A program made the translations under genes and the position numbers. Source: Candidatus Paracaedibacteraceae bacterium (GTDB lineage Bacteria; Pseudomonadota; Alphaproteobacteria; Paracaedibacterales; CAIULA01). From it: a stretch of 56,642 nt of DNA. Shown here piece after piece: positions 173 to 54,927 of the stretch. The stretch is from NCBI GenBank assembly GCA_027328625.1, contig DAHVSZ010000001.1, forward strand, positions 1 to 56,642. The letters run 5' to 3'. Every line of letters begins with the position of its first letter. Positions within the stretch are counted from its first letter, which is position 1. The notes under the pieces are model-generated. The model was not told where the DNA came from. It saw nothing but the letters and a program-made list of their open reading frames with translations, and did no database searches.

Positions 173-838
173 GTGCGTTTCTGTTATATTGCTATTCTCT
201 TTTTTTCATTTTTTGTGGTGATGACTATGAGCAATGGGAATGCAACAGATACTGATGGTGCTGGAATCCTTATGGGGCATTACCCAGCTCTCAAATTAGA
301 AACAATTCAGAGATTCATTAAGCTAAACGGCGAATTGCAAGAGTTACAAAAAAGTTATCCAAATCGAAAGTTTCCAAGATTTTATTTGAGCTCGACTGAA
401 GATGAAACAAGTGCTGTCATTGAAGAAATGCAAAAGATGATTGATGGGCCTGATGTAATGGGCATTCAAAGGGCTAATACAAGAAGACTAGGAATGCCTA
501 GAAAACCTTTAGTAATGGATGTTCAAGTAGTTGAGCCGCTAACAAAAAGGTTAGAAAAGCTTGAAAGCTGTTTGAGAGGGAGTATTCAAATGACTGAGGA
601 AGAACAAAGACAAGAAATGAATAAAGGATATTTAAAAGTTGTTGAGGCTGATAAAGCCCGCATCTTATCTTTATATTCAAGCTTTGCTCAAAATAATTCT
701 ATTGTTCCAGTGAATTTCGTTCAGAGAGTTAATGAATCATTAAAGAATGGTGAGATAGATTTAAAGATCGCAAAGCGTCTTCTTGGTATTCTTTTAGAAA
801 ATATTAGTCATCCAGGGCAGTTTTGTACTGCTGTGTGA
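173..838 (+). CDS. Hypothetical protein with an N-terminal hydrophobic, signal-like segment
   Basis: 221-aa ORF with a GTG start. N-terminus reads FCYIAILFFSFFVVMTMSNG. I recognise no family. Confidence 0.35.
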   Translation: MRFCYIAILFFSFFVVMTMSNGNATDTDGAGILMGHYPALKLETIQRFIKLNGELQELQKSYPNRKFPRFYLSSTEDETSAVIEEMQKMIDGPDVMGIQRANTRRLGMPRKPLVMDVQVVEPLTKRLEKLESCLRGSIQMTEEEQRQEMNKGYLKVVEADKARILSLYSSFAQNNSIVPVNFVQRVNESLKNGEIDLKIAKRLLGILLENISHPGQFCTAV

Positions 839-3792: not shown

Positions 3793-4903
3793 ATGCGTGC
3801 AGAAATTGAAACACAAGTGAAAGCTATTAATCAGTCTTTGGTACTCCTTCGGAGGCATCTTTGACTGGGACCAAGCTATAATAAGACTAGATGTTTTAAA
3901 CCAACAAGCTGAATCTCCAGATCTGTGGAATGACCAGGCTTCTGCTCAAAAGATCTTGAAAGAACGTGATTCATTGCAGGGTTCAATCAAACGCATTCAA
4001 GATTTTGAAAGGTCTTTAAAAGACAATGTTGAATTGATCGAACTTGCAGAGATGGAAGATGATCTAGAGGTTTTGGCAGAAGCTGAAAAGAGCTTGGAAC
4101 TATTAACCAAAGAGGCTGCGCGTCTACAGCTAGAAACGCTTCTTTCTGGTGAAGCAGACACTAATGATTGCTTTATCGAAATAAACGCAGGCGCAGGGGG
4201 GACAGAGGCTCAAGATTGGGCTCAAATGTTAGCACGCATGTACAGCCGTTGGGCTGAGGGGCGTAAATACAAATTAGAAATTTTAGATGAAAACCCAGGC
4301 GAAGAAGCTGGCATTAAATCCATCACTTTTAAGGTCATGGGACACCAAGCTTATGGTTGGTTAAAAACAGAAAGCGGCGTTCATCGATTGGTTCGTATTT
4401 CTCCCTTTGACTCAAACGCTAGACGTCACACCAGTTTTGCCTCAATTTGGGTTTATCCGGTAATTGATGATTCAATTGAAGTTGAGGTGGAAGAAAAAGA
4501 TTTAAGAATTGATACCTACCGGGCTTCCGGAGCAGGCGGGCAGCACGTTAATAAAACAGAAAGTGCTATTCGTATTACTCACAACCCAACTGGAATTGTG
4601 GTTCAATGTCAAAATGATCGATCTCAGCATCGTAACCGAGCCCAGGCTATGTCTATGTTAAAAGCTCGTTTGTACGAGTTAGAGCTTAGGAAAAGAGAAG
4701 AAAAGCTAAATAATCAATCAGCAAGCAAAACTGATATTGGTTGGGGGCACCAAATCCGGTCTTATGTTTTGCAGCCTTATCAAATGGTCAAAGACAATAG
4801 AACAGGTGTTGAACGGGGTAATGCTCACGGTGTTTTGGATGGTGATATTGATTGCTTTTTAGAAGCGGCACTAGCACAAAGAATTGGTGGAGAGGAAGAG
4901 TGA
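3793..4903 (+). CDS. prfB: Peptide chain release factor 2, expressed through a programmed +1 frameshift
   Basis: Frame 0 runs ATG 3793 [23 protein letters not shown] to TGA at 3862. The +1 frame from 3863 reads [22 protein letters not shown]... and joins track ORF 3956..4903, which carries SPF and GGQHVNK motifs. Confidence 0.93.
3851..3865 (+). promoter_or_regulatory. prfB autoregulatory frameshift site (SD-like GGAGG, then CTT TGA C)
   Basis: ggaggcat ctt tga c read at 3851-3865. This is the canonical RF2 shift-site architecture. Confidence 0.88.
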
Positions 4904-5142: not shown

Positions 5143-6285
5143 TTAAGCAGCAACTTCCTGACCATTGGCAATTGCCGACAGCGTTCTGGCAATCACTCTG
5201 ATTTCATTTCTAAGCTCTTGAGTTGATGATGTGCGGCCGGTCACCATTTCCTCTAAAAGCTTGGTTGATGTTGTGTCTAGACTCCGCAAGTGCTGACTAA
5301 TAACCTCATTAAGGGCTGCTTGACTTGGATTTCTTGTAGCCTGGATCAAACTTTCCTGTAAATCAATTTGATTTTGCGCAATTTTCTTCATCACATTTTG
5401 ATGCCCAGACATTTGATCAGCCATCATAGATAATTTTTCGCCTACGGTTTGCAAAGCTTTAATAACGCTTACACGGTTGTCTTCGGTACGACGCATTTGT
5501 GACTGTAGGTTTGCCATAGATTCAATTGTTTGTTCTAAAAGGCCTTGAGTATATGCAGGACCACTCCCTGTGGCTGCTGAAACCTCGGCAACTCCACTTA
5601 AACGAGTGTTAGCAGCTAGGCGCTCTTCAAGTGTGTGGTAAAAGCTGCTGCTCGCTTTACTAATTTGTAAATCAAGAAAACCAACGATCAGAGAGCTTGC
5701 GAGTCCAAACATTGATGAGCTGAACGCCATTCCCATTCCTGTTAAGGGAGATTGCAGACCTTGTTTTAGATTAGTGAAAGCATCTTTTATTTCACTTCCA
5801 CCCATATTAATACTGTTAATAACACCTGTTATGGCGCCAATTGTTTCAGAAAGTCCCCAAAAAGTCCCCAAAAGCCCTAAGAAAATCAAAAGACCAACAA
5901 GATAACGATTTAGATCACGGTTTTCATCTAGGCGTCCATCGACACTGGCTAGAATTGATCTTGCGGTTAGAGGGGCAATACTACCACTGTGGTTTGGATC
6001 ACTTAACAAAATGGCTAAAGGTGCCAAGATTTTTGCAACGGGTGCATCTGGAAATCTTTCTTTTCCTTGTTCAAAATTATCCAGCCAAGTTTGCTCTTGT
6101 TGTAAACGAAATAATTGAAAAAAAGATAAAACAACACCTAATCCTAGACATGAAAGAATAATTATGTTTAAAGCAAGATTGTGAAAAAAGATTTGCTTTA
6201 AAGATGGATAAAGAAACGCTGTGGTCGCTATGGCCAGAACGAGGAAAATTCCTATTCTCATTAAACAACGATGAATATAACTCAT
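5143..6285 (-). CDS. MotA/TolQ/ExbB proton-channel family protein with a long C-terminal coiled-coil-like tail
   Basis: There are N-terminal TM segments. Channel-core-like TM segments read LVGLLIFLGLLGTFWGL and GMGMAFSSSMFGLASSLIVGFLDL. About 160 aa of heptad-like, Q/E/L-rich sequence follow. Confidence 0.6.
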   Translation of the reverse strand: MSYIHRCLMRIGIFLVLAIATTAFLYPSLKQIFFHNLALNIIILSCLGLGVVLSFFQLFRLQQEQTWLDNFEQGKERFPDAPVAKILAPLAILLSDPNHSGSIAPLTARSILASVDGRLDENRDLNRYLVGLLIFLGLLGTFWGLSETIGAITGVINSINMGGSEIKDAFTNLKQGLQSPLTGMGMAFSSSMFGLASSLIVGFLDLQISKASSSFYHTLEERLAANTRLSGVAEVSAATGSGPAYTQGLLEQTIESMANLQSQMRRTEDNRVSVIKALQTVGEKLSMMADQMSGHQNVMKKIAQNQIDLQESLIQATRNPSQAALNEVISQHLRSLDTTSTKLLEEMVTGRTSSTQELRNEIRVIARTLSAIANGQEVAA

Positions 6286-8286: not shown

Positions 8287-8351
8287 TTACTAAACCTTTT
8301 ATTTAAACTAATTTTGGATAAAAATTGGCTACTTGTGCTATACAACAGCTT

Positions 8352-8375
8352 GGATCCTTGGGTCAAGCCCGAGAA
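8352..8375. repeat. Degenerate G-type palindromic element (ggatccttggg-tcaag-cccgagaa)
   Basis: Read directly in the ddl-murB intercistronic gap. It has the same loop as the other family members. Confidence 0.55.
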
Positions 8376-8391
8376 AGCTAGAGGTATTCAT

Positions 8392-9309
8392 CTAAAGCCG
8401 AGATCCGATTCGGATAATTTCCCATTCAAGTTCTTGTCCAGTTATTTCTTTCACCTTTTTCTGTACCATTGTACCAAGAGCCTCGATATCATTTGCACGC
8501 GCAGCGTCAAGATTAAGTAAGAAATTGCAATGTTTTTCAGATACCTGAGCATCACCTATGCGAAGACCTCTACACCCAGCCAGGTCAATTAGTTCCCATG
8601 CTTTTGAGCCTTGAGAAGGATTTTTAAAGGTACTTCCACCTGTGCGACCTCTAATAGGTTGGCTTTCTTCTCGTTTATGCAAATAATCACTAACTTTGAT
8701 TCTAATTTCATTTGGGTCTTTTTTTATGCACCTAAAAGCAGCACGGACAGCAATTGCACCAGCTGGTAAATTTCCATGACGATAAGTCATATGGATTTCG
8801 TTGGTATGTAAACGGTGAAGAACACCTTGTTGGTCAACAAATTCAAACCATTCCAGAAAATCTTTCGTTTCATTTTCATAGGCTCCAGCATTCATAGCGA
8901 GCGCTCCGCCAATGGTTCCAGGGATTCCAACAAGGAATTCAAGTCCTGATAATCCTGCTTCTTGGCATTTCATTGCAACGGTTCTATCTAAGCAACCAGC
9001 ACCAGCAATAACTAAATCATTTTCTATGGAAATATCAGAAAATCCACTGCCTAATTTAACAACACAACCCTCGATACCACCATCTCGAACCAAAAGATTG
9101 GATCCAGCACCAATACAGGTAATGGCAAGATTCGATGGCTTATTTTTTAAGAAATGACATAAATCAACTGTATCTGCTGGTCTAAACAAGAGATCAGCAG
9201 CGCCTCCAACCTTAAACCAAGTTGTTTGCGACATTAAATGACCAAAAGAATAACGACCTTGGACTGAAGGTAGTTTTTCTATAGCGAGACTTTCTTTAAA
9301 TTGTGTCAT
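8392..9309 (-). CDS. murB: UDP-N-acetylenolpyruvoylglucosamine reductase
   Basis: FKVGGAADLLFRP, IGAGSNLLVRDGG and GGSTFKNP motifs. Confidence 0.93.
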   Translation of the reverse strand: MTQFKESLAIEKLPSVQGRYSFGHLMSQTTWFKVGGAADLLFRPADTVDLCHFLKNKPSNLAITCIGAGSNLLVRDGGIEGCVVKLGSGFSDISIENDLVIAGAGCLDRTVAMKCQEAGLSGLEFLVGIPGTIGGALAMNAGAYENETKDFLEWFEFVDQQGVLHRLHTNEIHMTYRHGNLPAGAIAVRAAFRCIKKDPNEIRIKVSDYLHKREESQPIRGRTGGSTFKNPSQGSKAWELIDLAGCRGLRIGDAQVSEKHCNFLLNLDAARANDIEALGTMVQKKVKEITGQELEWEIIRIGSRL

Positions 9310-9317
9310 ATAAGATC

Positions 9318-10823
9318 TTAGCCGGTTTTTTCTTGAACTGTATCTTGATCACCATTCCATAAAAGATCCATTTGTGCAGGTAAAGCAGCTGCCCAATAGG
9401 TAATACTACCTGCGCCAAGACAAAGAACTATATCACCTGATTTTGCAATGCGTCTTAAAAGGTACGGGAGTTCTTTCTGATCTTTTATTTCAAATACTTG
9501 TGAGATCTCACCTTTTTGGCGAACAGCTTCAGCTAAAAGATCTGACCTTGCTCCTTCTATAGGATCTTCTCCTGCACTATAAACAGGCGCAATGACAACT
9601 TGATCACACCCAGAAAAGCATGTGGCAAAATCATCGAATAAATGACTTAAACGGCTATAACGATGGGGTTGCATAATAGCAATAATATTGCCTTTTGTTG
9701 CTTGTTTTGCTGCATCAACCACAGTTTTAATTTCGACTGGATGATGAGCATAATCATCAATGATTGTGACGCCTCCAGTTATACCTACTTTGGTAAAGCG
9801 ACGTTTTACTCCTTTAAAATTATCAAAAGCTTTGCGAATGATTTCTTCACTGATACTTAATTCTTGTGCAATGGCAATAACTGATAAAGCGTTTTGGACA
9901 TTATGTTTTCCAACCATAGGAAGAAACAAGTCTTTGATACGATGCGGTAAAGATTTAAGACTTGGTGAATCCTTTTGCATAAATGCCTGTGGTGGAAGAG
10001 GCCTTGATATGTCAACATCAAAGGTTGTTCCTTCTTCACTTAAACGCAAATTTAAAGCACGAATCATTGCATCAGGGTGAAAGCCATAAGTAACAAAACG
10101 TCTGTCAGTAATTTGAGGGACTAATGACATAACGTTCGGGTGATCAGCACATAATATTGCAAGTCCATAGAATGGAATATTGCTAATAAACTTAAGAAAA
10201 GCTTGGTTAAGAGCTTCTATTGTCCCATAAAATTCCATGTGTTCTGGGTCAATGTTGGTTACTATTGCGATTGTCGCTGAAAGCTTTGTGAAACTACCAT
10301 CTGATTCATCAGCTTCAACAACAGTCCAGTCACCTGTTCCAAGACGAGCATTTGTGTTGTAGGCATTAATTATGCCACCATTAATTACAGTTGGATCAAA
10401 ACTAGCTGCTTCTAATAATGAGGCAGCGAGAGATGTGGTTGTTGTTTTTCCGTGAGTTCCTGAAATAGCAATTGATAGTTTAAGTCGCATAAGTTCTGCC
10501 AGCATTTCAGCGCGTTGAATGACTGGAATACCGTACTTGCGAGCTGCAATAACCTCTGGATTATTGGCTTTTACAGCTGATGAAACAACAACAACTTGAG
10601 CTCCTTGTATATTTTCAGCATTATGTCCTATTGAGACTCGTATACCAATTTTCTGTAGTCTTGTCGTGTTATTATTTTCAGCTATATCGCTTCCTTTAAT
10701 TTTATAGCCTAAATTATGCAACACTTCTGCTATTCCGCTCATGCCAATACCACCGATGCCAATGAAATGAAGATGATGTACAGTTTGAGGTGGTATACGC
10801 ATGGTTACAAAAACCTTTTTCAA
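9318..10823 (-). CDS. murC: UDP-N-acetylmuramate--L-alanine ligase
   Basis: HFIGIGGIGMSGIAEVL and GTHGKTTTTS motifs. The track start is a TTG at 10823; an ATG at 10802 (MRIPPQ...) is an equally plausible start. Confidence 0.92.
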   Translation of the reverse strand: MKKVFVTMRIPPQTVHHLHFIGIGGIGMSGIAEVLHNLGYKIKGSDIAENNNTTRLQKIGIRVSIGHNAENIQGAQVVVVSSAVKANNPEVIAARKYGIPVIQRAEMLAELMRLKLSIAISGTHGKTTTTSLAASLLEAASFDPTVINGGIINAYNTNARLGTGDWTVVEADESDGSFTKLSATIAIVTNIDPEHMEFYGTIEALNQAFLKFISNIPFYGLAILCADHPNVMSLVPQITDRRFVTYGFHPDAMIRALNLRLSEEGTTFDVDISRPLPPQAFMQKDSPSLKSLPHRIKDLFLPMVGKHNVQNALSVIAIAQELSISEEIIRKAFDNFKGVKRRFTKVGITGGVTIIDDYAHHPVEIKTVVDAAKQATKGNIIAIMQPHRYSRLSHLFDDFATCFSGCDQVVIAPVYSAGEDPIEGARSDLLAEAVRQKGEISQVFEIKDQKELPYLLRRIAKSGDIVLCLGAGSITYWAAALPAQMDLLWNGDQDTVQEKTG

Positions 10824-10847
10824 GAATAAATAATAGGAAATAAAGAC

Positions 10848-11954
10848 TTACATCTTTACTGTTAGCAAATCTCCAATAACTTGTGCAATAGTATTTGCAA
10901 GATTAGTACTTGCTTCAGGTTGTGCAAGTTCACGCATTGCTTTCGCAGCTTTGGTTAGTTTCTCAGGATTTGACATCAATATAATAAGCTGTTCTGAGAG
11001 AGTTGAAGGAGTAAAACTTTTTTCTCTCAGCACCCAAGCTGCACCAGCTTTTGCGTAAATCTGTGCATTATACCATTGATCACCTTCTAAGGATGCAGCA
11101 TATGGAACTAAAAGAGCAGGCTTTCCAACAACAGCAAGTTCTGCAACAGTAGAAGCTCCAGATCTTGCAATCACAAGATGCGAAGATGCATACAATTCAT
11201 CCATATTTTTGAAAAAGGGCTGTATATCTACATCTAAGAGTGATTGACGATAGGCAGCCTTAGTTTGTGCTAAATATTCAGGTCGACATTGCTGTTTAAT
11301 TTTCAACCGACGCTGTAATTCAAGAGGAAGATTAATTAGAGTTTGTGGAACGGTTTCAGAAAATATTCGAGCCCCTTGACTACCGCCAATAATAAGCAGG
11401 TGAAATGGATCATTTGATTGCGATGGCGTATAAGGACTGTTTTTTAAAGCTAAGATTTCTGGGCGAACTGGGTTGCCAGTACACACTGAGTTTGAATTAG
11501 CGCCTCTTGTTTCTGGAAAAGAAGTGGCGATACAAAAAGCACGTTTTGAGAGTAATCTATTGGCTTTTCCTAAGACAGCATTTTGCTCATGAATAACAGT
11601 GGGGATGCCAGAGAGTTGTGCAGCTAAAAGAGGGGGGAGGGAAGGATAGCCTCCAAAACCAATAACAATAGTTGGTTTTAGTTTTCGATAAAGCCAATAA
11701 CAATATAAAGTATGCCAGAAAAGACTTAGATACAGCATTAATCTGCCAATAATTGGCGCGCGCCTTTTTATAGGACGAATGAAAATTTCTTCAAAACAAG
11801 AAGCGTTATTTAGGGCTTGCCCTCTATTGTCTGTAACAAGATAAACTTTTCTACCATAATCTTTTAATTCTTCTCCTAAACTTAAAGCCGGAAACAGGTG
11901 CCCACCAGTTCCACCACTTGCAAGCAAGTAAGTTGGTTTTTGGGATTGGCGCAT
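10848..11954 (-). CDS. murG: Undecaprenyldiphospho-muramoylpentapeptide beta-N-acetylglucosaminyltransferase
   Basis: LASGGTGGHLFPALSLGEEL and the HEQN motif, in dcw context. Confidence 0.93.
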   Translation of the reverse strand: MRQSQKPTYLLASGGTGGHLFPALSLGEELKDYGRKVYLVTDNRGQALNNASCFEEIFIRPIKRRAPIIGRLMLYLSLFWHTLYCYWLYRKLKPTIVIGFGGYPSLPPLLAAQLSGIPTVIHEQNAVLGKANRLLSKRAFCIATSFPETRGANSNSVCTGNPVRPEILALKNSPYTPSQSNDPFHLLIIGGSQGARIFSETVPQTLINLPLELQRRLKIKQQCRPEYLAQTKAAYRQSLLDVDIQPFFKNMDELYASSHLVIARSGASTVAELAVVGKPALLVPYAASLEGDQWYNAQIYAKAGAAWVLREKSFTPSTLSEQLIILMSNPEKLTKAAKAMRELAQPEASTNLANTIAQVIGDLLTVKM

Positions 11955-13096
11955 TACAAAACCTCCGTGACACCATGACGACGTCTGGTCAGCGACAGAA
12001 GCATACCCATGGCAATCCCAAGAGCAACTAAAGATGATCCACCATAACTAACAAAAGGCATGGTCATACCTTTTGTTGGTATTAAATGAAGTGCAGAGGC
12101 CATATTAATAAAAGCTTGAAGACCAAATTGCATGGCAATTCCGGATGTTCCCATAATGACAAACAAACTAGAATCTTGCATAGCGCGTAAGAGTGAGCGA
12201 ATAACAATGAAGGCAAACAATCCAACCATAGCAAGACAAAGAACGAGTCCAAATTCTTCACCAGCAACTGAGAAGACGAAATCGGCGTGTGCGTCAGGGA
12301 CATTCTTTTTGATAATTCCTTCTCCTGGTCCTCGGCCAAATAGACCACCATTCATAAACGCTTCTAAAGATTGATTGACTTGATAAAGATCGTGCTTGGG
12401 ATCACCAGAGGTTGGATCTAAAAATTGATCAATACGTCGAGCAACGTGAGGAAACAAGAAGTACGCTCCACATAAACCAGATACGCCCAAGCCTGCCAAG
12501 ATAACCATCCATATTATAGGCATGCCAGCAATAAATAATTGACCAATCCAAGTTGAGACCACTACTAAAGTCATTCCTAAGTCAGGCTGTAAAAGAAGTA
12601 ATAGCACAAGTATGCACAGCAAGATAAATGATATTAATAAGCCAGGAAATTGAAAATCACGATATTTTTCAGCTAGCATCCATGCAACCATGATAGCAAA
12701 TGCAGGTTTTATAAACTCTGAGGCTTGAATAGATGTGCCAGCAATCATAATCCAGCGTCGAGCACCTTTGATTTCTGTGCCATTAAATAAAGTAACAATA
12801 AGCATAAGAACGCCAACTAGATAAATAAGAGAAGCAAACCTTCTTACTTGTTGAGGTGAAAGAAGAGAAACGCTAATCATTAAAACAAGTGCAGGTGGCA
12901 CCATAATCATATGACGTTTAACAAAGAAGAAGGTGCCTAAATTTAGGCGATCGGCAACAGGAGGGCTTGCAGCGAAACTTAATAGAACACCAAGCGCTAT
13001 AATAGCAAGAAGAGCCCCTAGACTCCAGCGATCAACAGTCCACCACCATCTTCCAAGAACGCTTGTATCACGTCGTGAAAAAGTTGTCGTACTCAT
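11954..13096 (-). CDS. ftsW: Peptidoglycan glycosyltransferase FtsW (SEDS family)
   Basis: Polytopic membrane protein with PDLGMTLV and SEFIKPAF motifs, located between murD and murG. Confidence 0.9.
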   Translation of the reverse strand: MSTTTFSRRDTSVLGRWWWTVDRWSLGALLAIIALGVLLSFAASPPVADRLNLGTFFFVKRHMIMVPPALVLMISVSLLSPQQVRRFASLIYLVGVLMLIVTLFNGTEIKGARRWIMIAGTSIQASEFIKPAFAIMVAWMLAEKYRDFQFPGLLISFILLCILVLLLLLQPDLGMTLVVVSTWIGQLFIAGMPIIWMVILAGLGVSGLCGAYFLFPHVARRIDQFLDPTSGDPKHDLYQVNQSLEAFMNGGLFGRGPGEGIIKKNVPDAHADFVFSVAGEEFGLVLCLAMVGLFAFIVIRSLLRAMQDSSLFVIMGTSGIAMQFGLQAFINMASALHLIPTKGMTMPFVSYGGSSLVALGIAMGMLLSLTRRRHGVTEVL

Positions 13097-24230: not shown

Positions 24231-25790
24231 ATGTTGCCATCTTCTTCACATCTATCCTTAAAAGATGTCTTGATACAACAAGAATTACTAACTTCTGATC
24301 AGTTGAATGTAGCCTTAGAAGAACAGCGCCGTCATCCAAAAATGTTGGAGGAAGTTCTATTAGATCTAAAATTCATTAGCCCTTCAGCTTTACAAAATGC
24401 TTTGTCATTAGTCACAGGGTTACCAGTTGTTGATTTGAAAAATATTATACTAGATTCAAAAATTTTTAATCTTCTTTCTTTAGATGTGTGGCGCGAATGC
24501 CAAGCTGTTGCCTTTGGCTGGCGTGAAAATGTGTTATGTATTGCTATGGTTGATCCTGAAAATATTTTATTGATTGATCGTTTAAGACAGCATTTGTATG
24601 AAACTCATAAGATTACTCAAATCCAACTTTATCATGCAGACTCACAAGCGATTGAATCTTATATCAATCAAGGTGACGAGTTTTGTCCGTCTTATTTTTC
24701 AATTGAGAAAGCTGATGACTCAATAGTTAAATTGGTTGATTCGATTCTAACTCATGCTGTTAATATAGGTGCTTCAGATATTCATTTCCAACCCGAAGAG
24801 CAAGTTGTTCGTATTCGTTATCGCTTAGATGGAATTTTAAGGACTTTGCAAACTTTACACAAAACTATGTGGCCAACTTTAAGTGTCAGATTAAAAGTCA
24901 TGGGGGGAATGGATATTTCAGAAGCCAGACGCCCACAAAACGGGCGTTTTACAAGACAGATTGCAGGTCATGAAGTTGATTTTAGAATCTCTTCTCATCC
25001 GACTATTCATGGGGAGAATATTGTTACTCGGCTTTTAGATAAGGATAAATCACTTTTAAGTTTAGAAGATTTGGGGTTTGTGTCTGATCAAATCGAATAT
25101 TTAAAAAAAGTTTCAGAATTTCCGCAAGGTATGATTATTGTCAGCGGCCCTACGGGATCTGGAAAGACAACAACGCTTTATGCCTTATTTTCTCAAATGA
25201 ATAGTGAAATTCGAAACATCATGACCTTAGAAGAACCTGTTGAATACCAGTTGCAAGGTATAAGACAAACGGAAATAAAAGAAGGTGGGGTTGTGAGTTT
25301 TTCAGATGGAGTCAGATCAATTCTTCGTCAAGATCCAGACGTCATTTTTATTGGCGAAATTAGAGATGAAGCAACTGCAAAAATGGCACTTAGATCAGCA
25401 ATGACGGGTCATTTGGTCATAGCGACACTTCATACAAGTGATAGTTTTGGCGTACCGTCTAGATTAATTGATTTAGGATTGCATCCCAATCTTTTGGCAG
25501 GACATATTATTTGCTCAGTATCGCAGCGTTTGATTAGAAAAATTTGTTTTGAATGTCAGGGGAGCGGTTGCTTGAAATGTGATCAGTCAGGATTAAAAGG
25601 GCGCATTGTCTTATCGGAGATTTTATCTTTTAACGAAGACATAGATGAAATTGTGGCAAAGGGTGGGAATAGAACTGAATTAAAGCAATACGCACGCCAA
25701 CATGGTTATAAAACTATTAATGATGATGCTGAATTAAAATTGTTGTCTGGTGTTATTAGCCAGGCTGAGATAAAAAGAGTATTAGGTTAG
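24231..25790 (+). CDS. GspE/PilB-family secretion ATPase (type II secretion / type IV pilus assembly)
   Basis: T2SSE N-terminal domain, Walker A GPTGSGKTTT, Asp/His boxes, and a tetracysteine cluster CFECQGSGCLKC. Confidence 0.85.
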   Translation: MLPSSSHLSLKDVLIQQELLTSDQLNVALEEQRRHPKMLEEVLLDLKFISPSALQNALSLVTGLPVVDLKNIILDSKIFNLLSLDVWRECQAVAFGWRENVLCIAMVDPENILLIDRLRQHLYETHKITQIQLYHADSQAIESYINQGDEFCPSYFSIEKADDSIVKLVDSILTHAVNIGASDIHFQPEEQVVRIRYRLDGILRTLQTLHKTMWPTLSVRLKVMGGMDISEARRPQNGRFTRQIAGHEVDFRISSHPTIHGENIVTRLLDKDKSLLSLEDLGFVSDQIEYLKKVSEFPQGMIIVSGPTGSGKTTTLYALFSQMNSEIRNIMTLEEPVEYQLQGIRQTEIKEGGVVSFSDGVRSILRQDPDVIFIGEIRDEATAKMALRSAMTGHLVIATLHTSDSFGVPSRLIDLGLHPNLLAGHIICSVSQRLIRKICFECQGSGCLKCDQSGLKGRIVLSEILSFNEDIDEIVAKGGNRTELKQYARQHGYKTINDDAELKLLSGVISQAEIKRVLG

Positions 25791-28228: not shown

Positions 28229-28924
28229 ATGGCAGAAGCATTAATTCTTGCCATCTCAACTTTTTTGGGTGCTTCTCTTGCAAGCTTTTTATTCTCACTA
28301 GTTCATTATCCCATAAGATCTTTATTCAGACGATCATACTGTGATTTGTGCCATTCAGTTTTAAAGTGGTATCAGCTTATTCCTATTGTTTCATCTCTCA
28401 TTTTTAGACACCAGTGTCGATGTGGGCATCGTCCATCGTTTAAATATGGTTTTGGGGAGTTGATACTTGGATTGATATTTTTGATTAATGTTTGTGTCTT
28501 TGGGGTAAGCTATCCTGGTTTTTTGGTTAATTTTTTGTGCTTAATTGGTTTTTACACAAGCGTGGTTGATTTGAAAACGAAAAAGGTGCCTCTTAATAGT
28601 CTTATTTTGATAGGCGTTATGGGCTGCGCTTGGGTTTATCATTATCAGCGGCTACCTTGGTCAGTATTGGGGGTAATCTCTGTTATTGTATTTATATTTT
28701 TTATTGAAAAATGGTTTATAAAAAGGGAAAAAGCAATTGGCGAAGGTGATATCTTACTTTTATTGGCAGCAGGTATTTGGTTGCCGTGGGAGTCTCTGCC
28801 TGAATTTCTGTTTTTAACGGGATTATTGGGAGTTCTCACTTCTTTTATGTATAAGAGAAGAAGCGGATTCCCTTTTGCACCAGCAATCATTATAAGTTTG
28901 TGGTTGACGCTTTTGCTATCCTAA
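28229..28924 (+). CDS. Prepilin peptidase (A24 family, PilD-like)
   Basis: N-terminal Cys cluster CDLCHSV...CRCGH, polytopic membrane protein, and Asp-containing motifs VVDLKTKKVP and GEGDILLL. Confidence 0.75.
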   Translation: MAEALILAISTFLGASLASFLFSLVHYPIRSLFRRSYCDLCHSVLKWYQLIPIVSSLIFRHQCRCGHRPSFKYGFGELILGLIFLINVCVFGVSYPGFLVNFLCLIGFYTSVVDLKTKKVPLNSLILIGVMGCAWVYHYQRLPWSVLGVISVIVFIFFIEKWFIKREKAIGEGDILLLLAAGIWLPWESLPEFLFLTGLLGVLTSFMYKRRSGFPFAPAIIISLWLTLLLS

Positions 28925-29094: not shown

Positions 29095-30633
29095 TTAAGC
29101 AGCTTTTTCTGATTTCTTTTGGCTGTCAACAAGATCTGTAAAACGCTTACCAAGGTTTGTTACAGCAAGGATCCAGATGAGACAGATAACAATCACAATT
29201 GGTCCTAAGATATAGGCTAAGCTTGCCAAGGAAACGCTTCCGCCGATAACAGCTAGCATGGTTGATTGGATAAACGCACCGCCGGATTTTCCTGCACGAC
29301 CACCAATAACTTCAACAGCTGCCTGACCTTTTACTTTTGCTTCAGGATCAAGTGGGATATAAGCCATTTGTTTTGTTGAGTCAAACAATGAGTATTTCGT
29401 TCCTTTGGAAAGAACGTTTTGTATTTGTCCAACAATCACAGCAACCATAACAACGGTTGTACCCAATATTGGTGTAAGTGGATCATGGGTTGCGCCTTGC
29501 CAAACGACTAGGTAGAAAATCGCTGACGTTACAAGAACCATAATTGGGGTGATAATTGCTGCTTTTAACCAGCTTAGACGACGTAAAATGTTGTTACCAA
29601 CAACCATTAACATAATGGTTACAACACCTGTCCAAGTGGAGAATTGTCCCATAAATGCGTTATAGTCATTCATATCTGGGAATGCGATTTTAATTTGGCC
29701 TTTCCAAACACCTTCAACCAAGTTAATAGCAATACCGTAAGCAAGTACGATAACAGCTATCAAACCAAGATATGGGTTACTAAGAATGTACTTAAAGCTT
29801 TCACCAACAGAGAGTTTTGCTTTTTTCTTTTTACCAGAGCCTTCACCAGGTTGATAAAGCTTTGGGTCTGTTAGAACATTTGTATTCATCCAACGATAAG
29901 TGATTGCAATAATAAGCCCTGCTACAACAACTGCACCCATCAAGAATTTCAAGTTTACACCGAAAGAGTCAACACCTTGCGGTAGAGATTTTGCATAACT
30001 AGCGCACATAATAATTGTTGGGCCAGAAAGAACCAAACCAATGTTACCAACCATACCAAATAAGCCATAAAAGCGCTTTGCTTCTGTTACTTTTGTGATT
30101 TCATTAGCAAACTGCCAGAAGAGCATTGAAAGAACCACGCTTCCCCATAATTCAGAGAGAATATAGAACAAGCTAAAGCTCCAGTTACCAATAACAGGAA
30201 CAAACCAGTGTGCATTTGGCCATGCTGCTTGATAAGCTTGAATGGTTTCCATGCTCATGTGTAACGCTTCTTTGTTGGGATAAATAACAAATGCAAATGC
30301 AGCAAAAAAGATCAAGAATGGCATCAAAATCGTATAAAATAATTTCTCACGTTCTAATATATTCGCAAGTTTAACGAATACAATCATAAACAAAATTGCT
30401 GCTGGAGTAACACCATAGAGCTTCAAAAAGCCTAAGCATTCAGCACCACCTGCAGGGGCATTGACCATAAGGGTGTCTTTTGTATCGCGTAAAATAGTGT
30501 AATTAAATAAGATGCAAAGCATCATGATGCCCATTGGCAAAAACTTTTTGAGCTCGTAGTTATGTACTGGCCAAAAAATGCCACGCAGGCCTGTAAATTC
30601 TTCTTTTGGTTTATCAGGGTTTTGACTACTCAT
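29095..30633 (-). CDS. tlc: ATP/ADP translocase (nucleotide transporter, NTT/Tlc family)
   Basis: 12-TM protein with the family-typical N-terminus LRGIFWPVHNYELKKFLPMGIMMLCILFNYTILRDTKDTLMV. Confidence 0.93.
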   Translation of the reverse strand: MSSQNPDKPKEEFTGLRGIFWPVHNYELKKFLPMGIMMLCILFNYTILRDTKDTLMVNAPAGGAECLGFLKLYGVTPAAILFMIVFVKLANILEREKLFYTILMPFLIFFAAFAFVIYPNKEALHMSMETIQAYQAAWPNAHWFVPVIGNWSFSLFYILSELWGSVVLSMLFWQFANEITKVTEAKRFYGLFGMVGNIGLVLSGPTIIMCASYAKSLPQGVDSFGVNLKFLMGAVVVAGLIIAITYRWMNTNVLTDPKLYQPGEGSGKKKKAKLSVGESFKYILSNPYLGLIAVIVLAYGIAINLVEGVWKGQIKIAFPDMNDYNAFMGQFSTWTGVVTIMLMVVGNNILRRLSWLKAAIITPIMVLVTSAIFYLVVWQGATHDPLTPILGTTVVMVAVIVGQIQNVLSKGTKYSLFDSTKQMAYIPLDPEAKVKGQAAVEVIGGRAGKSGGAFIQSTMLAVIGGSVSLASLAYILGPIVIVICLIWILAVTNLGKRFTDLVDSQKKSEKAA

Positions 30634-45302: not shown

Positions 45303-46343
45303 TTATCTTAATGATTGATTTAGAGTGATTTTGATTGAAGGATTATCCGTTTGAATTTTGTCACACTTTAGCCAACTATTGTAGCCGAGTGCAAATTTTC
45401 GATTAAGCATGACAGGTTTGATATCGAAACGATTAAGTTTCAAACGCAAATGAATTTGGGTATTCATTCCGATAAAAAAATAACTTAGTTCCTTTAATAA
45501 TGAAAAAGTTGTTACAACATTAGATGATGCAGGTGTTGGTAAAAATGAACAATATTCATTCCATGATAATGGGCCAATCGCGATACTAGCAGCCGCAGTT
45601 TGATCCCAACATTTTTTGCCCAAAATCATATTTTTTCCTAATTCATTAAATTGTCCTTTTTTAGAACCAATTTTACTTAGGTCATGCGCATGCGCTTCAC
45701 GCCAAGCCCCTTCAAACTGTTCAATAACGACGGGAACATTAAAATAACTTTTGATAAGTCTTAATAACCCTGCGCCTGAATGTGGTCTTTTCCAGATAAT
45801 ATCGTGATAGCTCATTAATATTTGAGGACTAATCTTTAAACCTTGAAGCAAATTAGGGTGAGCAATGCCAGCAATTTGAAGTAAAGTCTTTCCTATAGGA
45901 GCATCTTGAGGAGGGGCTTGCAAAACACCAGGCATAATTTTCTTGCGAAGACGGTGCCAGAACGTTGCTAAGCGATGATTAAAAATATCTAGAAAATCCC
46001 GAAACCCTGTGTCTTTTTGTCTTGTTCTATCAATGACAGTTTCTGTATATGGAGTTGGCAGAGGGCCTTGTATTCCAGCAATACTTAGAAAGTTGATCCA
46101 TAATATTGGTTTTTGGTCTGGTTCTTGTTGCAGAGATTGAAGTTCACTTGTTGGGATAGCAAAGCTTACATGTGATTTTATTTGAATCGCTTCATTTTGA
46201 GGATCAGTTTCACTGCCCAAAGGAGTGGCGCCAGGATCTAACTGTTCTAATATGTTAATCGCTTGATCAAAGTCAAATTCCTGTGGGGATTTTAATAATC
46301 CTTCTTTTACAGGAGGATTTTCTCGCCAGGTAATGGTTGCCAT
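45303..46343 (-). CDS. tssG: Type VI secretion system baseplate subunit TssG (ImpH/VasB family)
   Basis: LLKSPQEFDFDQAINILEQ, FLSIAGIQGPLPTPYTE and FRDFLDIFNHRLATFWHRL match the family signature segments as I recall them. Confidence 0.8.
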   Translation of the reverse strand: MATITWRENPPVKEGLLKSPQEFDFDQAINILEQLDPGATPLGSETDPQNEAIQIKSHVSFAIPTSELQSLQQEPDQKPILWINFLSIAGIQGPLPTPYTETVIDRTRQKDTGFRDFLDIFNHRLATFWHRLRKKIMPGVLQAPPQDAPIGKTLLQIAGIAHPNLLQGLKISPQILMSYHDIIWKRPHSGAGLLRLIKSYFNVPVVIEQFEGAWREAHAHDLSKIGSKKGQFNELGKNMILGKKCWDQTAAASIAIGPLSWNEYCSFLPTPASSNVVTTFSLLKELSYFFIGMNTQIHLRLKLNRFDIKPVMLNRKFALGYNSWLKCDKIQTDNPSIKITLNQSLR

Positions 46344-48136
46344 TTTATATACTCATTTGGTCTATCAGTTTTTATCATTACAAGCTCAACAAAAGAATTT
46401 AAGGAAACACTTAATGCAAAATAATGTCGTAATACAGATGCTAATAGGAAATTAGAATTTCCGGTTTCTGACAATGTTTCCATTTCCATGACAATTTGAA
46501 TTCCTTCGACAAATCCTCTCCATGCTTCAAGGCCAAATCTCCTCACAATTTTGTTTGTTTTGAGAGATTTTATATTATCAATTTCATGTTGTTTGTATGT
46601 GTGAGTTGATCCTGAATAGAGTTTTAAACTCTCCTTTAAAATGTTGAGAGCTTCTTTATTTCCTGTTAACGGAAGGTGATTGACCGAAAGCTGTGAGATA
46701 AGGCGCCATAATGTTTCACCATCTGCTGGAGAATATTCTTGGGGAACAGGCTTATCTAGACATACAATTTTACTGATTGGAACCGCTTCTTCAATTTGCA
46801 ATTCGGCACCTTGTGGTAATTGTTCTGCTAAAAATCTATTGGTACATAAGGTATGAGCGTAAACAATCTGATGAGGGGGTAAAGCTGGGTTAAATTGTAA
46901 GTCTACAAAAGACAGATATACATCTGTACCAGGTAAATCACGTTCTTCAGCAGAAGTTCTTTTTGCTGTCCAATATACAGTATCTTTTAAAGATATATGC
47001 TGATGATTAAAAGAAAAATACGGTGAAAAAGTTTGTGGTTCTTGATTTCCTTCAACAGCGGCAGCCACTTTCAGAATCCGATATATTTCTGTTGTTTTGT
47101 CACGCCGTTGGTCCGGCACAAGTCGGTAACGGATTTTTCTTTTTGTTAAACGTTGTGGTTCAGTAATTTTTTTAAACAAATTAACAATAGGTGTACATCC
47201 TAGCAAAAAGTTATTAGGGCTTAGTTTTTTTTGCAAAATTTCTTGTACACCTTTTAATGAAATCAAAAGTTCAAATACATTTGTATCTAAATTTAAATTG
47301 TCAGGAAGTTTGTTCAAATGCTTTATCTTGAAGAAAAGAAATTTTTCTGGTAGGTGAAAATATTCTTGTAGCAATTGATATGCATGCGTTGAGTATTCAG
47401 GAATAGGAAGAGTCATTTCATCTCTATTAAACCCGATAGGTGTGAGCGAATCATCGGGAAGAGTATGTGCTGTTTGACCATCAACAGAAACATAAACCGA
47501 AGGATGAACTTGAGAAAATAGGCTTTCATATATATCCAAGCTTAAAATGCGTTCGCCTCTAATATGAAATTGTAATTCATCTAGATTGAGAGCACCTAGT
47601 GATGCCCCTTGAGTTTCAATTGTGAGACGTAAAAACCAGTTGTCATCTTTACTTTTTCCAACCAAGGTGAATGCATCTTTTGGAACAATGGCAACTTTTT
47701 TAAGTTTTATAGGCCATAACGTTAGAGGATAAATAGTTTGGAAACGACAAGAGACATCTTTTTCAGAGTAAGCAAATAGTGGTGTTTCTTTTGGAATATT
47801 ATAGCCCTTTGTTAGTTTTCCTTTTGTTGGATCCACTTGGAATTGGGCAATAGACATGGAAGGAATTGGGTTCACAAGATGTGGATAAAGAACTTCGAGT
47901 AATGCTGCAGCAGTTTCAGGAAATCTATCATCAATTTCCTGGCTTAAGCGAGCCGTCATGAAAGCAAATGATTCCAATAAGCGTTCCGTATGAGGGTCAG
48001 GGGATTCCTTTTCGCTTAATTCTAGTCGGCGAGCAATTTTAGGATGTTGCTTGGCGAAAATTTTTCCTGAATTTCGAAGATATCGAAGCTCATTATTGTA
48101 GTAATTTAGGAACCGATCGCGTGCATTTCGAAACAA
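46307..48136 (-). CDS. tssF: Type VI secretion system baseplate subunit TssF (ImpG/VasA family)
   Basis: RFLNYYNNELRYLRNSGKIFAKQHPKIARRLEL, DPHTERLLESFAFMTARL and LLEVLYPHLVNPIPSM match the family. TTG start with ggag 9 nt upstream. The 3' end overlaps tssG by 37 nt. Confidence 0.85.
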   Translation of the reverse strand: MFRNARDRFLNYYNNELRYLRNSGKIFAKQHPKIARRLELSEKESPDPHTERLLESFAFMTARLSQEIDDRFPETAAALLEVLYPHLVNPIPSMSIAQFQVDPTKGKLTKGYNIPKETPLFAYSEKDVSCRFQTIYPLTLWPIKLKKVAIVPKDAFTLVGKSKDDNWFLRLTIETQGASLGALNLDELQFHIRGERILSLDIYESLFSQVHPSVYVSVDGQTAHTLPDDSLTPIGFNRDEMTLPIPEYSTHAYQLLQEYFHLPEKFLFFKIKHLNKLPDNLNLDTNVFELLISLKGVQEILQKKLSPNNFLLGCTPIVNLFKKITEPQRLTKRKIRYRLVPDQRRDKTTEIYRILKVAAAVEGNQEPQTFSPYFSFNHQHISLKDTVYWTAKRTSAEERDLPGTDVYLSFVDLQFNPALPPHQIVYAHTLCTNRFLAEQLPQGAELQIEEAVPISKIVCLDKPVPQEYSPADGETLWRLISQLSVNHLPLTGNKEALNILKESLKLYSGSTHTYKQHEIDNIKSLKTNKIVRRFGLEAWRGFVEGIQIVMEMETLSETGNSNFLLASVLRHYFALSVSLNSFVELVMIKTDRPNEYIKWQPLPGEKILL

Positions 48137-48330: not shown

Positions 48331-49017
48331 ATGAAAAAAAACAAACTTTTACTTACTGGTGCACTCTTAATTGGTGGAATCTCAGCAGCAACTGCCGGAT
48401 TTAATGGTTTCTATGTGGGAGGTCACCTTGGCTTAGGGTTATTACAGGGAACGCATACTTACACCAATGGGGGCTCTACTGCTGGTACACAAAAAGTCAA
48501 AGCAATTGGGTATTTGGCCGGGATTAATGCTGGTTATTTAAAACTAATGAGCGGTTCAAACATGGTTGTTGGCGGCGAGGTTTATTACACTTTAGCTGGG
48601 CCAAAATCTTCTCAAAATTTGCAAATTCCTGGAGGCCTTGTTGAAGGGAAGGCAAACATCAGTCATAAATCTGCAATGGGAGGAGCGTTGATTGCGGGTG
48701 CATTGTTGAACCCAAAAGTCCTAATGTATGCAAAATTGGGTTATGAACTTGACAAGTTTAATTTGAAATACACTGGCCTTACTTTTCAAGCACAGACAAC
48801 AGAGAGTTATACAAAATCAACGCGCGCTTTTGTTCCAGGTGCAGGGGCTCTCTATAAAATAAGTGAATCGTTGTTGGTGGGTGGTGAATACGGTTATGCG
48901 AAGATGGGGAAATTGAAACCCCGCTCAGATCAAGTGGCAATAAATGGTGCGCAGCGTGGCTATACATTTACACCAACAGAGCATCGTCTGACTGCGAAAG
49001 TGGTTTACGTATTTTAA
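48331..49017 (+). CDS. Small outer-membrane beta-barrel protein (Omp25/OmpA-like 8-strand class)
   Basis: Signal peptide MKKNKLLLTGALLIGGISAATA, glycine/aromatic-rich strands, and a terminal ...AKVVYVF. Confidence 0.6.
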   Translation: MKKNKLLLTGALLIGGISAATAGFNGFYVGGHLGLGLLQGTHTYTNGGSTAGTQKVKAIGYLAGINAGYLKLMSGSNMVVGGEVYYTLAGPKSSQNLQIPGGLVEGKANISHKSAMGGALIAGALLNPKVLMYAKLGYELDKFNLKYTGLTFQAQTTESYTKSTRAFVPGAGALYKISESLLVGGEYGYAKMGKLKPRSDQVAINGAQRGYTFTPTEHRLTAKVVYVF

Positions 49018-49026
49018 AAGTAGCGC

Positions 49027-49746
49027 TTACAAATCTTTCCATGGGGCAGGGAAATTTTGTCCCATTTCAATTTGATCTTGATGAAAGAAAGACATATCAT
49101 TACTTTCAGTAGAGGAGGGAAATTGTTCGTCTCCTTCTTCACCATAGTCGTTTACTATTTCATTCTCTTGTTCAGCAATTTCTAACTCAATCTCATGAAT
49201 CAGAGCGGGATCTGGCCGAGGACCAACAGTCGTATTTGTTAAGTAAATGAGCGCATCAGAATATCCGTTCATAAGAGCTTGAATAGCGGCGTTGTCAACT
49301 CCATCTTGATTTGGGTGAGGAATATCCTCGACACTGTGATGAACAACATAATCTAGTAAATTCAAATCACCGTAACTTGCAGCTTCAACAAGTAGGCTGT
49401 TGATGCCCTCTTGATCTAAATAAGGAAGAATATATTTAACAATCCCAAGATCACCAAAATGGGCAGCATAAGTTGCAGCCAAATTGATTCCTTCTTGATC
49501 AGGATGCAATGCCTTTTTGTTCTTATGTTCCATAACGGCTTTTAATGTTTTTATATGGCCATTTCCTGCAGCTGTTTCTGCAACATTATTGACTTCATCT
49601 TGATTTGCTTCCGGTAAGAGTTTTAAAACTGTCTTTGTTTTTCCCAAAAGAGCAGCCTCGTGGATACGATGGCTCAAAGAGTCTGCAAAAACTTCTTTTT
49701 CTTGAAACAACAGAATAAATAACACGGAAATTAAGTATTTAACCAT
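49027..49746 (-). CDS. Secreted ankyrin-repeat-like protein with an acidic C-terminus
   Basis: The signal peptide is MVKYLISVLFILLF. Four ANK-like units read AAGNGHIKTLKAVMEH, AAHFGDLGIVKYIL, AASYGDLNLLDYVVHH and ALMNGYSDALIYL. Confidence 0.5.
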   Translation of the reverse strand: MVKYLISVLFILLFQEKEVFADSLSHRIHEAALLGKTKTVLKLLPEANQDEVNNVAETAAGNGHIKTLKAVMEHKNKKALHPDQEGINLAATYAAHFGDLGIVKYILPYLDQEGINSLLVEAASYGDLNLLDYVVHHSVEDIPHPNQDGVDNAAIQALMNGYSDALIYLTNTTVGPRPDPALIHEIELEIAEQENEIVNDYGEEGDEQFPSSTESNDMSFFHQDQIEMGQNFPAPWKDL

Positions 49747-53268: not shown

Positions 53269-54927
53269 ATGAATAAAATTTTAAGAAATACAATACTCAG
53301 TCTTTGTTTGACCAGTTGCCTGGCGATGGGGATGGATGATGGGGATGGCGGTGCGGTTGTTGAACCAGCGACACGACCTGCGACAGCGACGACGGATGCA
53401 CGTCTGCCCACCGAAGAACTCAGAAGGAACGCTGCTGTTGTGCCTGTTGAAGTTGTGCCAGGAAGGTGGTTTGGGAAAGCTAAATTTAAGGGTCCTAATG
53501 GAGATATGCAGTATCAAAACACTGACAACCTTCTTATGGCATTCGGATGCGCTCTCGGCCAAGCAGGAGTTCTTGAAAAAGCAGTAAAAGAAGAAAGACA
53601 ACGAACAGATGTTCTTGCAGCAACAAACCAGATATTGAATAATGACCTAAGAGGGGTTACAGCGCAACTTGCTGCTGCAAAGGAAGAAGGCAAATCACAA
53701 ACTCAAAGACTACAAGATTTAGCAGACCGTTTAGCAGGGACAGAAACTGCTCTCGAAAAACAAAGGAAAGCTACCATAGATGCTATGTGGATTTCTTCTA
53801 CTATCGAGAGAGAGCTTGCCCTGGCAAAACAAAAAGAAGAAGATCTGGAAAGACGGCTTACAGCTGCAAATTTGGAAAATGAATCGAGGCTAAGAGATTT
53901 AACAGCTCGTTTGGAAGCGACAGAAAGAGCTCTTGAGGAACAAAGGAGACAGGCTGCCGCAGCTACTGAGACTACTTCCGATGTCAAACAAGCCCTTGCT
54001 TTGGCCGCACAGAGAGAAAAAACTTTAGAAGAGCAATTGTTAATAGCAAGGAGTGCCGCTGAAGTAAGATTACAAGAACTAAGGGAATTAAGCACAACTC
54101 TCACGAGCACATTAAGTGAACTTGCATCAACAAGGTCAGCTGCTGGAACCAACCAAAGACTGGTAGATATGATGAGAGAAGAGGCTGGAGTAAAAGAACA
54201 ATTATTGGGTTCTTTGAAAGAAAGATTGCTTCAATTCCAACGACAGCTACGTGTGGTGGTCACAAGTGATCATCCTGTTGAGGATTTAGATTCAGCACGT
54301 AAGTTTGTTGTGGGTGAATATCAAAAAGAGAAAGACGCTTTAGAGAGAGAGCTTGCGGCTCAGCGTGGTACTCTTTTACAAGCGCGAGAAGAACACAAAC
54401 GCTTGACAAAACAACGTGGAGAAAGCACTTCCTCGAATTTAGAAGAACTTATTGCACAAGCAGCTACCAGAATCCAACGCCTGCAAGCAGATGTTGAAAC
54501 AAAAGAGAGACACTTGAGTACTTTGACAACTGAGAAAACAGAGCTTGAGAGAGAAATAGAAGCTCTAGAGACAAAATCGGTGGGTGATTTTATAAAGGCT
54601 GTGCGAGCTGATAAGTTACTAGAATTAAAGGCATTTGAACAGTTTTCGGAGCTTGCGCGAAGAGGACATAATCATAGGTGGGCACATGGTGCAGGCTTAA
54701 GTAAGGGATCGCAATGGTTAGGTGAAGAACTTGTGAGAAAAATGGGCAAAGATGCAGCGTTACAGCTGTTGACTACTGGAGGTCTTTCGAGAGAAATGGC
54801 TGAATGGTTTATTTCTGATGACTCACAAGAGGCCATTCGTGATCACGGAAAAGGAACACTTGTTGGAACTAAAGCGGCGGATGAAGCTAATTGGACGAAA
54901 CTCAAAGCACGTTTTGGTGTTGCTTAA
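53269..54927 (+). CDS. Coiled-coil lipoprotein-like protein with 60-aa tandem repeats; compositionally atypical
   Basis: The N-terminus MNKILRNTILSLCLTSC carries an LTSC lipobox. Long heptad-like E/R/L/A/Q-rich sequence follows. Repeats lie at 53707-53886 and 53887-54066. I recognise no family. Confidence 0.6.
   Translation: MNKILRNTILSLCLTSCLAMGMDDGDGGAVVEPATRPATATTDARLPTEELRRNAAVVPVEVVPGRWFGKAKFKGPNGDMQYQNTDNLLMAFGCALGQAGVLEKAVKEERQRTDVLAATNQILNNDLRGVTAQLAAAKEEGKSQTQRLQDLADRLAGTETALEKQRKATIDAMWISSTIERELALAKQKEEDLERRLTAANLENESRLRDLTARLEATERALEEQRRQAAAATETTSDVKQALALAAQREKTLEEQLLIARSAAEVRLQELRELSTTLTSTLSELASTRSAAGTNQRLVDMMREEAGVKEQLLGSLKERLLQFQRQLRVVVTSDHPVEDLDSARKFVVGEYQKEKDALERELAAQRGTLLQAREEHKRLTKQRGESTSSNLEELIAQAATRIQRLQADVETKERHLSTLTTEKTELEREIEALETKSVGDFIKAVRADKLLELKAFEQFSELARRGHNHRWAHGAGLSKGSQWLGEELVRKMGKDAALQLLTTGGLSREMAEWFISDDSQEAIRDHGKGTLVGTKAADEANWTKLKARFGVA
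53707..54066 (+). repeat. Two full 180-bp (60-codon) tandem repeats inside the coiled-coil gene, with a partial third starting at 54067
   Basis: Unit 1 is RLQDLADRLAGTETALEKQRK...LENES. Unit 2 is RLRDLTARLEATERALEEQRR...SAAEV. RLQELREL... follows. Confidence 0.7.

Follow-up and report, generated by a model that had tools for sequence, protein, structure and literature searches.

A tssF-tssG pair that very probably belongs to a dispersed type VI secretion system in an uncultured, probably Holosporales-related bacterium

The stretch of DNA analysed here (contig DAHVSZ010000001.1, 56,642 nucleotides, hereafter the window) carries an isolated pair of genes, tssF and tssG, that code for subunits of the baseplate wedge of a type VI secretion system (T6SS). 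We consider it very probable that this pair represents the TssF-TssG wedge core of a dispersed T6SS, with genes at four or more loci, in an uncultured and probably intracellular alphaproteobacterium related to the Holosporales. Holosporales endosymbionts are known to distribute their T6SS core genes among four or more loci, one of which always consists of tssF-tssG alone (Midha et al. 2021, PMC8163844). The split layout is therefore the conserved norm of this group and not an oddity of the genome examined here. A preliminary description of the window had put the pair forward as its best candidate for a non-standard system, which is unwarranted because the layout is the published, conserved gene order of the group (PMC8163844).

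An intact tssF-tssG pair and its isolation

The tssF gene (46307..48136, minus strand) codes for a protein of 609 amino acids from a TTG start, and tssG (45303..46343, minus strand) for one of 346 amino acids from an ATG start. The two genes overlap by 37 nucleotides (46307..46343, minus strand). That both are full length and overlap in this way had been proposed earlier, and it is borne out by the coordinates of the open reading frames (ORFs) and by full-profile Pfam and TIGR matches. TssF matches PF05947 (T6SS_TssF) over profile positions 2-608 of 608 with an E value of 2.5e-183 (611.4 bits, cutoff 25), and reaches 582.6 bits with the NCBIfam equivalog TIGR03359 (cutoff 260.3). TssG matches PF06996 (T6SS_TssG) over positions 2-304 of 304 with an E value of 7.9e-68 (229.4 bits, cutoff 24.6), and the equivalog TIGR03347 with 229 bits (cutoff 143.3). 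Residues 7-600 of TssF also align to Escherichia coli TssF from the solved wedge (6GIY_A/6GJ1/6N38; E 2e-46), and the match of TssG to its counterpart in that structure (6GIY_C; E 1.6e-15) spans the N-terminal part only.

The N-terminus that results from the TTG start agrees with the conserved start in 23 relatives, and a candidate ribosome-binding site read from the sequence, GGAG (48147-48144, minus strand), is located 7 nucleotides ahead of this codon. Further upstream, the candidate promoter TTGCTA-16-TATAAT (48197-48170, minus strand) is the top sigma-70-like match within 42-49.9 kb, agreeing with the consensus at 10 of 12 positions. The pair is most likely transcribed from a promoter of its own, and translation of the two genes may be coupled through the overlap. 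The identical 37-nucleotide overlap is present in the Holosporales loci L004, L006, L007, L008 and L009 and also in L010, a canonical Nitronauta-like T6SS cluster, and thus it is a trait of the family rather than a local peculiarity. A gene caller placed an ORF of 53 amino acids over the tssF start, for which there is no family match of any kind. We considered a remnant of tssE upstream of tssF, but rejected it because tblastn returned nothing and the small ORF at that spot carries no family signature.

Pfam scans, which took in almost every ORF of 100 or more amino acids in the window plus small ORFs in intergenic gaps, together with tblastn searches, revealed no T6SS core gene other than tssF and tssG in the 56.6-kb window. 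When the window was searched by tblastn with 11 core proteins of L010, tssF and tssG were the only genes recovered, and the same was true with TssB, TssC and Hcp-like proteins of the Holosporales type. Thus, the earlier statement that no other core gene is located nearby holds for the entire window. Two ORFs, located at 32360-32848 (162 amino acids) and 35920-36480 (186 amino acids), were evaluated as possible Hcp or TssB genes and were rejected, given that Pfam returned no match and tblastn found no similarity to TssB or Hcp-like proteins of Holosporales.

The same isolation is observed in relatives. We compared the DNA around tssF, up to 10 kb on each side, in 11 distinct representatives of the Holosporales clade: four metagenome-assembled genomes (MAGs; L004, L005, L007 and L091), four metagenome loci (L011-L013 and L019), a contig of 1.68 Mb from Ca. 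Paracaedibacter symbiosus (L006), a Logan contig that encodes the TssF of Ca. Finniella (L008), and a 306-kb contig of a Holosporales MAG (L009). By tblastn, tssF and tssG are the sole T6SS genes in all 11, down to 51% identity. A metagenome scan with a TssF alignment supplied at least four of the Holosporales-clade loci, whose flanks carry no other T6SS module, as well as loci for contrast. Among the matches listed, nearly all of the approximately 70 non-Holosporales metagenome loci (L010, L014-L090) have tssE directly upstream of tssF, and tssB, tssC or hcp adjoin tssE wherever the contig extends far enough. The exceptions listed are L034 and L018, the latter with tssE-tssF-tssG only. The gene order in L010 is tssL-tssM-tssA-tssB-tssC-hcp-tssE-tssF-tssG-clpV-vgrG.

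In L018 (JAANMU010001720.1, GC content 0.48, non-Holosporales), tssE-tssF-tssG occupies positions 8319-11600, and the preceding 8 kb contain neither tssBC nor hcp. The splitting of baseplate modules is thus not confined to the Holosporales.

The pair is under strong purifying selection, and the constraint is clearly as strong as that on housekeeping genes. Ratios of nonsynonymous to synonymous substitution rates (dN/dS) were estimated by the Nei-Gojobori method in two comparisons, between the window and L091, which is a relative with 87% identity, and between L004 and L007. For tssF the ratios are 0.057 and 0.053, respectively, and for tssG 0.070 and 0.091. Values for genes of the same neighborhood are 0.125 and 0.119 for lspA, 0.042-0.098 and 0.066-0.084 for two M16 peptidase genes, and 0.129 and 0.051 for rplS.

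These data bear on the possibility that the pair is the remnant of a decayed T6SS, in which genome reduction has removed the remaining genes and left two intact by chance or because the loss is recent. The lack of any further T6SS gene in 56.6 kb would fit such a history, as would the reduced-endosymbiont appearance of the organism, which carries a TLC translocase, and the loss of the T6SS by Holospora species (PMC11909080). However, both ORFs cover their family profiles in full, with no truncation, frameshift or relaxed selection, and dN/dS values of 0.05-0.09 are as low as those of housekeeping neighbors in two independent lineage pairs. Moreover, the pair stands alone in every Holosporales-clade relative examined, and the published genomes with the same isolated-pair layout carry other T6SS modules (PMC8163844). 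We therefore regard decay as very unlikely. It had been one of three options offered in the preliminary description, which also named a T6SS split such that the wedge module is unlinked, and co-option of the wedge together with envelope proteins. The split arrangement is the option that the evidence supports, in agreement with the published layout (PMC8163844), whereas decay is contradicted by the full-length ORFs and the low dN/dS, and co-option by the loss of linkage below about 68% TssF identity where the pair itself persists, as described below.

Lineage, sheath modules elsewhere and proposed mechanism

The closest named homologs of the window's TssF are all from Holosporales, including Ca. 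Finniella inopinata (59% identity), Ca. Paracaedibacter symbiosus (56%), Paracaedibacteraceae and Holosporales MAGs (53-54%) and Ca. Odyssella thessalonicensis (52%). Nearer homologs are found in MAGs at 87%, 70% and 68% identity, and the closest MAGs are labelled as uncultured Alphaproteobacteria. An identical TssF occurs only on the metagenome contig k141_291786 of ERZ27237279 (56,674 bp), from which the window derives, and on shorter contigs of ERZ27237189 and SRR13203225. The window also encodes a TLC ATP/ADP translocase (29095-30633, minus strand; PF03219, E 2.2e-203), a protein that is a hallmark of obligate intracellular bacteria living as energy parasites. Together with a GC content of 38%, this gene fits an obligate intracellular alphaproteobacterium or endosymbiont. 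Rfam and tRNA scans of the window detected no rRNA, tRNA or Rfam family. From these features, we infer that the contig probably comes from a Paracaedibacteraceae- or Finniella-like lineage related to the Holosporales.

A 2025 review describes the T6SS as conserved across nearly all Holosporineae genomes, Holospora excepted, and as probably non-standard because canonical genes for two main components, TssD and TssJ in its naming, are apparently missing (PMC11909080). Published work proposes only a divergent, Hcp-like protein for the tube and a lipoprotein resembling TssJ, and it lists no ClpV. Midha et al. report transcription of the dispersed T6SS genes in Ca. Bodocaedibacter vickermanii (PMC8163844).

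Sheath modules of the Holosporales type can be located in other sequence collections. A search for TssC seeded from the Nitronauta-like cluster recovered close relatives of the seed only (at least 74% identity) and none from Holosporales. A second search was seeded with a Holosporaceae TssB-TssC fusion, chosen through the low-GC-looking amino acid composition of the representatives, and this yielded approximately 120 TssC clusters of the Holosporales type, with Ca. Finniella among them. In L094 (CP060235.1, a 558-kb alphaproteobacterial NCBI record), a fused tssBC gene (10001-12052) is accompanied by an Hcp-like gene for 180 amino acids, and an isolated tssF-tssG pair is located 3 kb away on the opposite strand, with ligA and a bamD-like gene between them. 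L095 has a fused tssBC (10001-12067) alone, flanked by lpxC and a guanylate cyclase gene. In L096 and L097, tssB and tssC are followed by a gene for a 186-amino-acid protein whose match to Hcp stays below threshold (E 8e-4). The flanks of L095-L097, which range from 0.4 to 10 kb with L096 ending 0.4 kb past tssC, contain no further T6SS gene. The preliminary description would have read a T6SS remainder elsewhere as the sign of a simple split locus, and for related genomes such a remainder is indeed found, both in the literature and in L094.

Two features of these sheath modules deserve mention in their own right. The genes located 3' of tssC in L097 (4351-4911) and L094 (12064-12606) code for homologous proteins of 180-186 amino acids (22% identity, E ~1e-7). 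One of them has a weak match to Pfam Hcp that stays below threshold (E 8e-4), in keeping with the Hcp-like protein of the literature and with reports that a canonical Hcp is apparently absent. In addition, approximately 100 clusters (P0242 and P0394-P0496, from MAGs named Holosporaceae bacterium or Alphaproteobacteria bacterium) have TssB and TssC as a single fusion protein of 650-760 amino acids, wherein VipA and VipB domains are joined by a low-complexity linker, whereas Finniella-like relatives keep the subunits separate. We know of no description of natural TssB-TssC sheath fusions.

By analogy with these genomes, the organism represented by the window probably carries its remaining T6SS modules at other loci. 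In E. coli, TssF2-TssG1 is the heterotrimeric core of each wedge and binds two TssK trimers, and six wedges with TssE surround a VgrG hub, dock on TssJLM and start assembly of the tube and sheath (PMC6300606, PMC4604203, PMC4072051). If the window's proteins act in the same manner, then two copies of TssF and one of TssG would assemble into a heterotrimer and recruit a pair of TssK trimers to complete a wedge, with these partners presumably encoded elsewhere in the genome. Six such wedges with TssE would be arranged around a VgrG hub and would dock on the TssJLM membrane complex. The docked baseplate might then initiate polymerization of the Hcp tube and TssBC sheath, and sheath contraction would expel VgrG and effectors, presumably into a protist host. 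That such a machine fires, and what its target might be, we likewise infer.

Several points weigh against this reading of the pair. Other T6SS modules of the window's own organism were not found; the window is a single metagenome contig, and the TssC contigs that were looked up (including P0254, P0487 and P0510) derive from other samples. The placement in Holosporales depends mainly on T6SS proteins, which are horizontally transferable, and on indirect markers. Furthermore, dS for tssF and tssG is about 0.9-1.5, which is near saturation and makes the dN/dS ratios approximate. Finally, the total number of sigma-70-like sites in 42-49.9 kb is not above chance, and the tssF promoter is a consensus match only.

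Despite these points, a dispersed T6SS is the explanation that we favor. The finding matters little beyond annotation, in that an isolated tssF-tssG pair marks the dispersed T6SS of Holosporales endosymbionts of protists, which is thought to mediate interaction with the host. Tools that detect T6SSs as gene clusters will overlook or mislabel such systems, and familiarity with the isolated-pair pattern averts false calls of orphan or degenerate T6SSs in metagenome contigs. With the window, one more uncultured lineage, probably a symbiont of freshwater protists, joins the group of bacteria with a dispersed T6SS.

Neighboring genes and other contents of the window

Upstream of tssF, the window carries a divergent gene for an outer membrane protein (OMP) beta-barrel (48331-49017), followed by a gene for an ankyrin-repeat protein (49027-49746) and uvrA. 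Downstream of tssG, Pfam identifies genes for a DcaP/Porin_2 porin, a protein with two transmembrane segments (2TM), lspA, a DUF3035 protein and two M16 peptidases. The neighbors named in the preliminary description are thereby confirmed on both sides. The ankyrin-repeat protein was considered as a T6SS effector, but this is unlikely because its N-terminal Sec-type signal peptide is unfit for a substrate loaded from the cytoplasm.

The full order uvrA-Ank-OMP-tssF-tssG-porin-2TM-lspA-DUF3035-M16-M16-rplS-trmD is kept in one relative with 87% identity, and its downstream part is also kept in L091. In L004 and L007 (68-70% TssF identity), the downstream block is retained and the upstream side is replaced. 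Below 60% TssF identity (L006, L008, L009, L011, L012 and L019), no neighbor from the window is found near the pair. Linkage to the porin, 2TM and lspA genes is therefore limited to relatives with at least 68% TssF identity (L091, L004 and L007), which indicates local synteny.

This distribution is relevant to the proposal that the wedge has been co-opted along with its envelope neighbors (porin, 2TM protein, LspA and small OMP) for a function other than a T6SS. The porin gene is located 65 bp from tssG on the same strand with no terminator-like site between them, and the order from tssF to the second M16 gene persists at 87%, 70% and 68% TssF identity, and both observations would favor the proposal. 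Yet a promoter-like site precedes the porin gene, the upstream neighbors already differ at 70% identity, and the linkage is absent in Ca. Finniella, Ca. Paracaedibacter symbiosus and the other four loci below 60% identity even though all of them have tssF-tssG. In addition, the lspA, DUF3035 and M16 peptidase genes are commonplace genes of envelope and housekeeping function, and in every system studied so far TssF and TssG reside in the cytoplasm (PMC6300606). Co-option thus appears extremely improbable, and conservation of the neighbors, which had been proposed as a check on this idea, does not support it.

T6SS genes are known to be mobile, and relatives differ in what lies upstream of tssF, and so one might suppose that the pair is a fragment recently gained by horizontal transfer that does not belong to any resident system. 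We regard this as extremely improbable, since the DNA around the pair has the same GC content (0.36-0.38) as the rest of the window, and relatives at 87%, 70% and 68% identity have the pair at the same chromosomal position with the same housekeeping neighbors. The divergence of the pair also tracks that of its neighbors. The shared position and the matching divergence indicate vertical inheritance.

The slot just upstream of tssF varies in its contents between close relatives. In the window (48331-49746) it holds the OMP beta-barrel gene and the gene for the ankyrin protein with its Sec signal. The corresponding slot in L004 (7896-9796) carries genes for an LHH-family nuclease toxin of 463 amino acids and a SUKH immunity protein, and in L007 (6364-9831) it encodes a protein of 1155 amino acids with no domain match. 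This variable slot could accommodate cargo or effector genes, or it could be a mere hot spot for rearrangement. If the lineage runs a stripped-down, non-canonical T6SS whose baseplate-linked cargo or effector genes reside in this slot, which we regard as very unlikely, then effectors would be tied to the wedge module instead of vgrG, hcp or PAAR, representing a new mode of linkage. The trmD-rplS genes lie beyond the M16 peptidase genes in the window (38170-39320) and in L091, and upstream of tssF in L004 (6190-7534) and L007 (4217-6150). This shift indicates rearrangement around the block from tssF-tssG through the porin and M16 genes between lineages.

The remainder of the window has mostly familiar content. 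Pfam matches include the dcw cell-wall cluster, lgt, prfB, an MFS transporter, rsmI, a T2SSE-type ATPase, an amidase, a response regulator, sodB, a prepilin peptidase, the TLC translocase, thymidine kinase, GST, asd, trmD, rplS and a few unknowns. Six ORFs coding for 162-552 amino acids have no significant Pfam match: 53269-54927 (plus strand), 36480-37385, 35920-36480, 32360-32848 and 5143-6285 (all minus strand), and 173-838 (plus strand). The 552-amino-acid ORF among them has only a weak phosphodiesterase match (E 0.003). These six ORFs may code for symbiont proteins specific to the lineage.

Three further loci in the window attracted our attention. The prfB gene for release factor 2 (3794-4903, plus strand) has a programmed +1 frameshift site, CTT TGA C, near 3858-3864 with GGAGG ahead of it, which explains why the ORF list has only the C-terminal 315 amino acids. 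An orphan Phd/YefM antitoxin gene (37873-38115, plus strand) is located 54 bp upstream of trmD with no adjoining toxin gene. In GCA_041443065.1, a relative with 87% identity, a ParE/YoeB toxin gene sits between the antitoxin gene and trmD, and so the toxin gene has apparently been deleted in the window. Lastly, a T2SSE/PilB-type ATPase with an MshEN domain (24231-25790, plus strand) and an A24 prepilin peptidase (28229-28924, plus strand) are separated by the amidase, response-regulator and sodB genes, and no pilin or platform genes are found nearby. Together, the ATPase and peptidase give the impression of a further secretion or pilus system that is dispersed or reduced.

Comparison with known secretion systems

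Canonical T6SSs of subtype i, as represented by L010 and E. coli Sci-1 (6GIY, 6GJ1, 6N38; PMC6300606, PMC4604203), have TssF and TssG from the same full-length families as the window. The TssF2-TssG1 wedge architecture is presumably common to both, and L010 shares the exact length of the gene overlap. Identity between the window and L010 is 45% for TssF and 31% for TssG. In canonical loci, tssE is directly upstream of tssF, and tssBC, hcp, clpV and vgrG are adjacent, whereas the window has none of these within 8.5 kb on one side and 45 kb on the other.

Like the window, L094 has an isolated tssF-tssG pair, which unrelated genes separate from the sheath module. However, its TssF is only 29% identical to that of the window, its sheath proteins are fused as TssB-TssC, and its two modules are a mere 3 kb apart.

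Another close counterpart is the dispersed T6SS of Holosporales such as Ca. Bodocaedibacter vickermanii, Paracaedibacteraceae and Caedimonadaceae (PMC8163844). Three further modules are known for the published system, whereas the pair alone has been seen for the organism of the window, which also represents a separate uncultured lineage (59% TssF identity to Ca. Finniella) with other flanking genes. Nevertheless, in the published systems as in the window, tssF-tssG stands alone, lacking both an upstream tssE and any other core gene in the vicinity. The same group is the source of the closest homologs of the window's proteins, and it shares with the window both a low GC content and the TLC marker of intracellular life.

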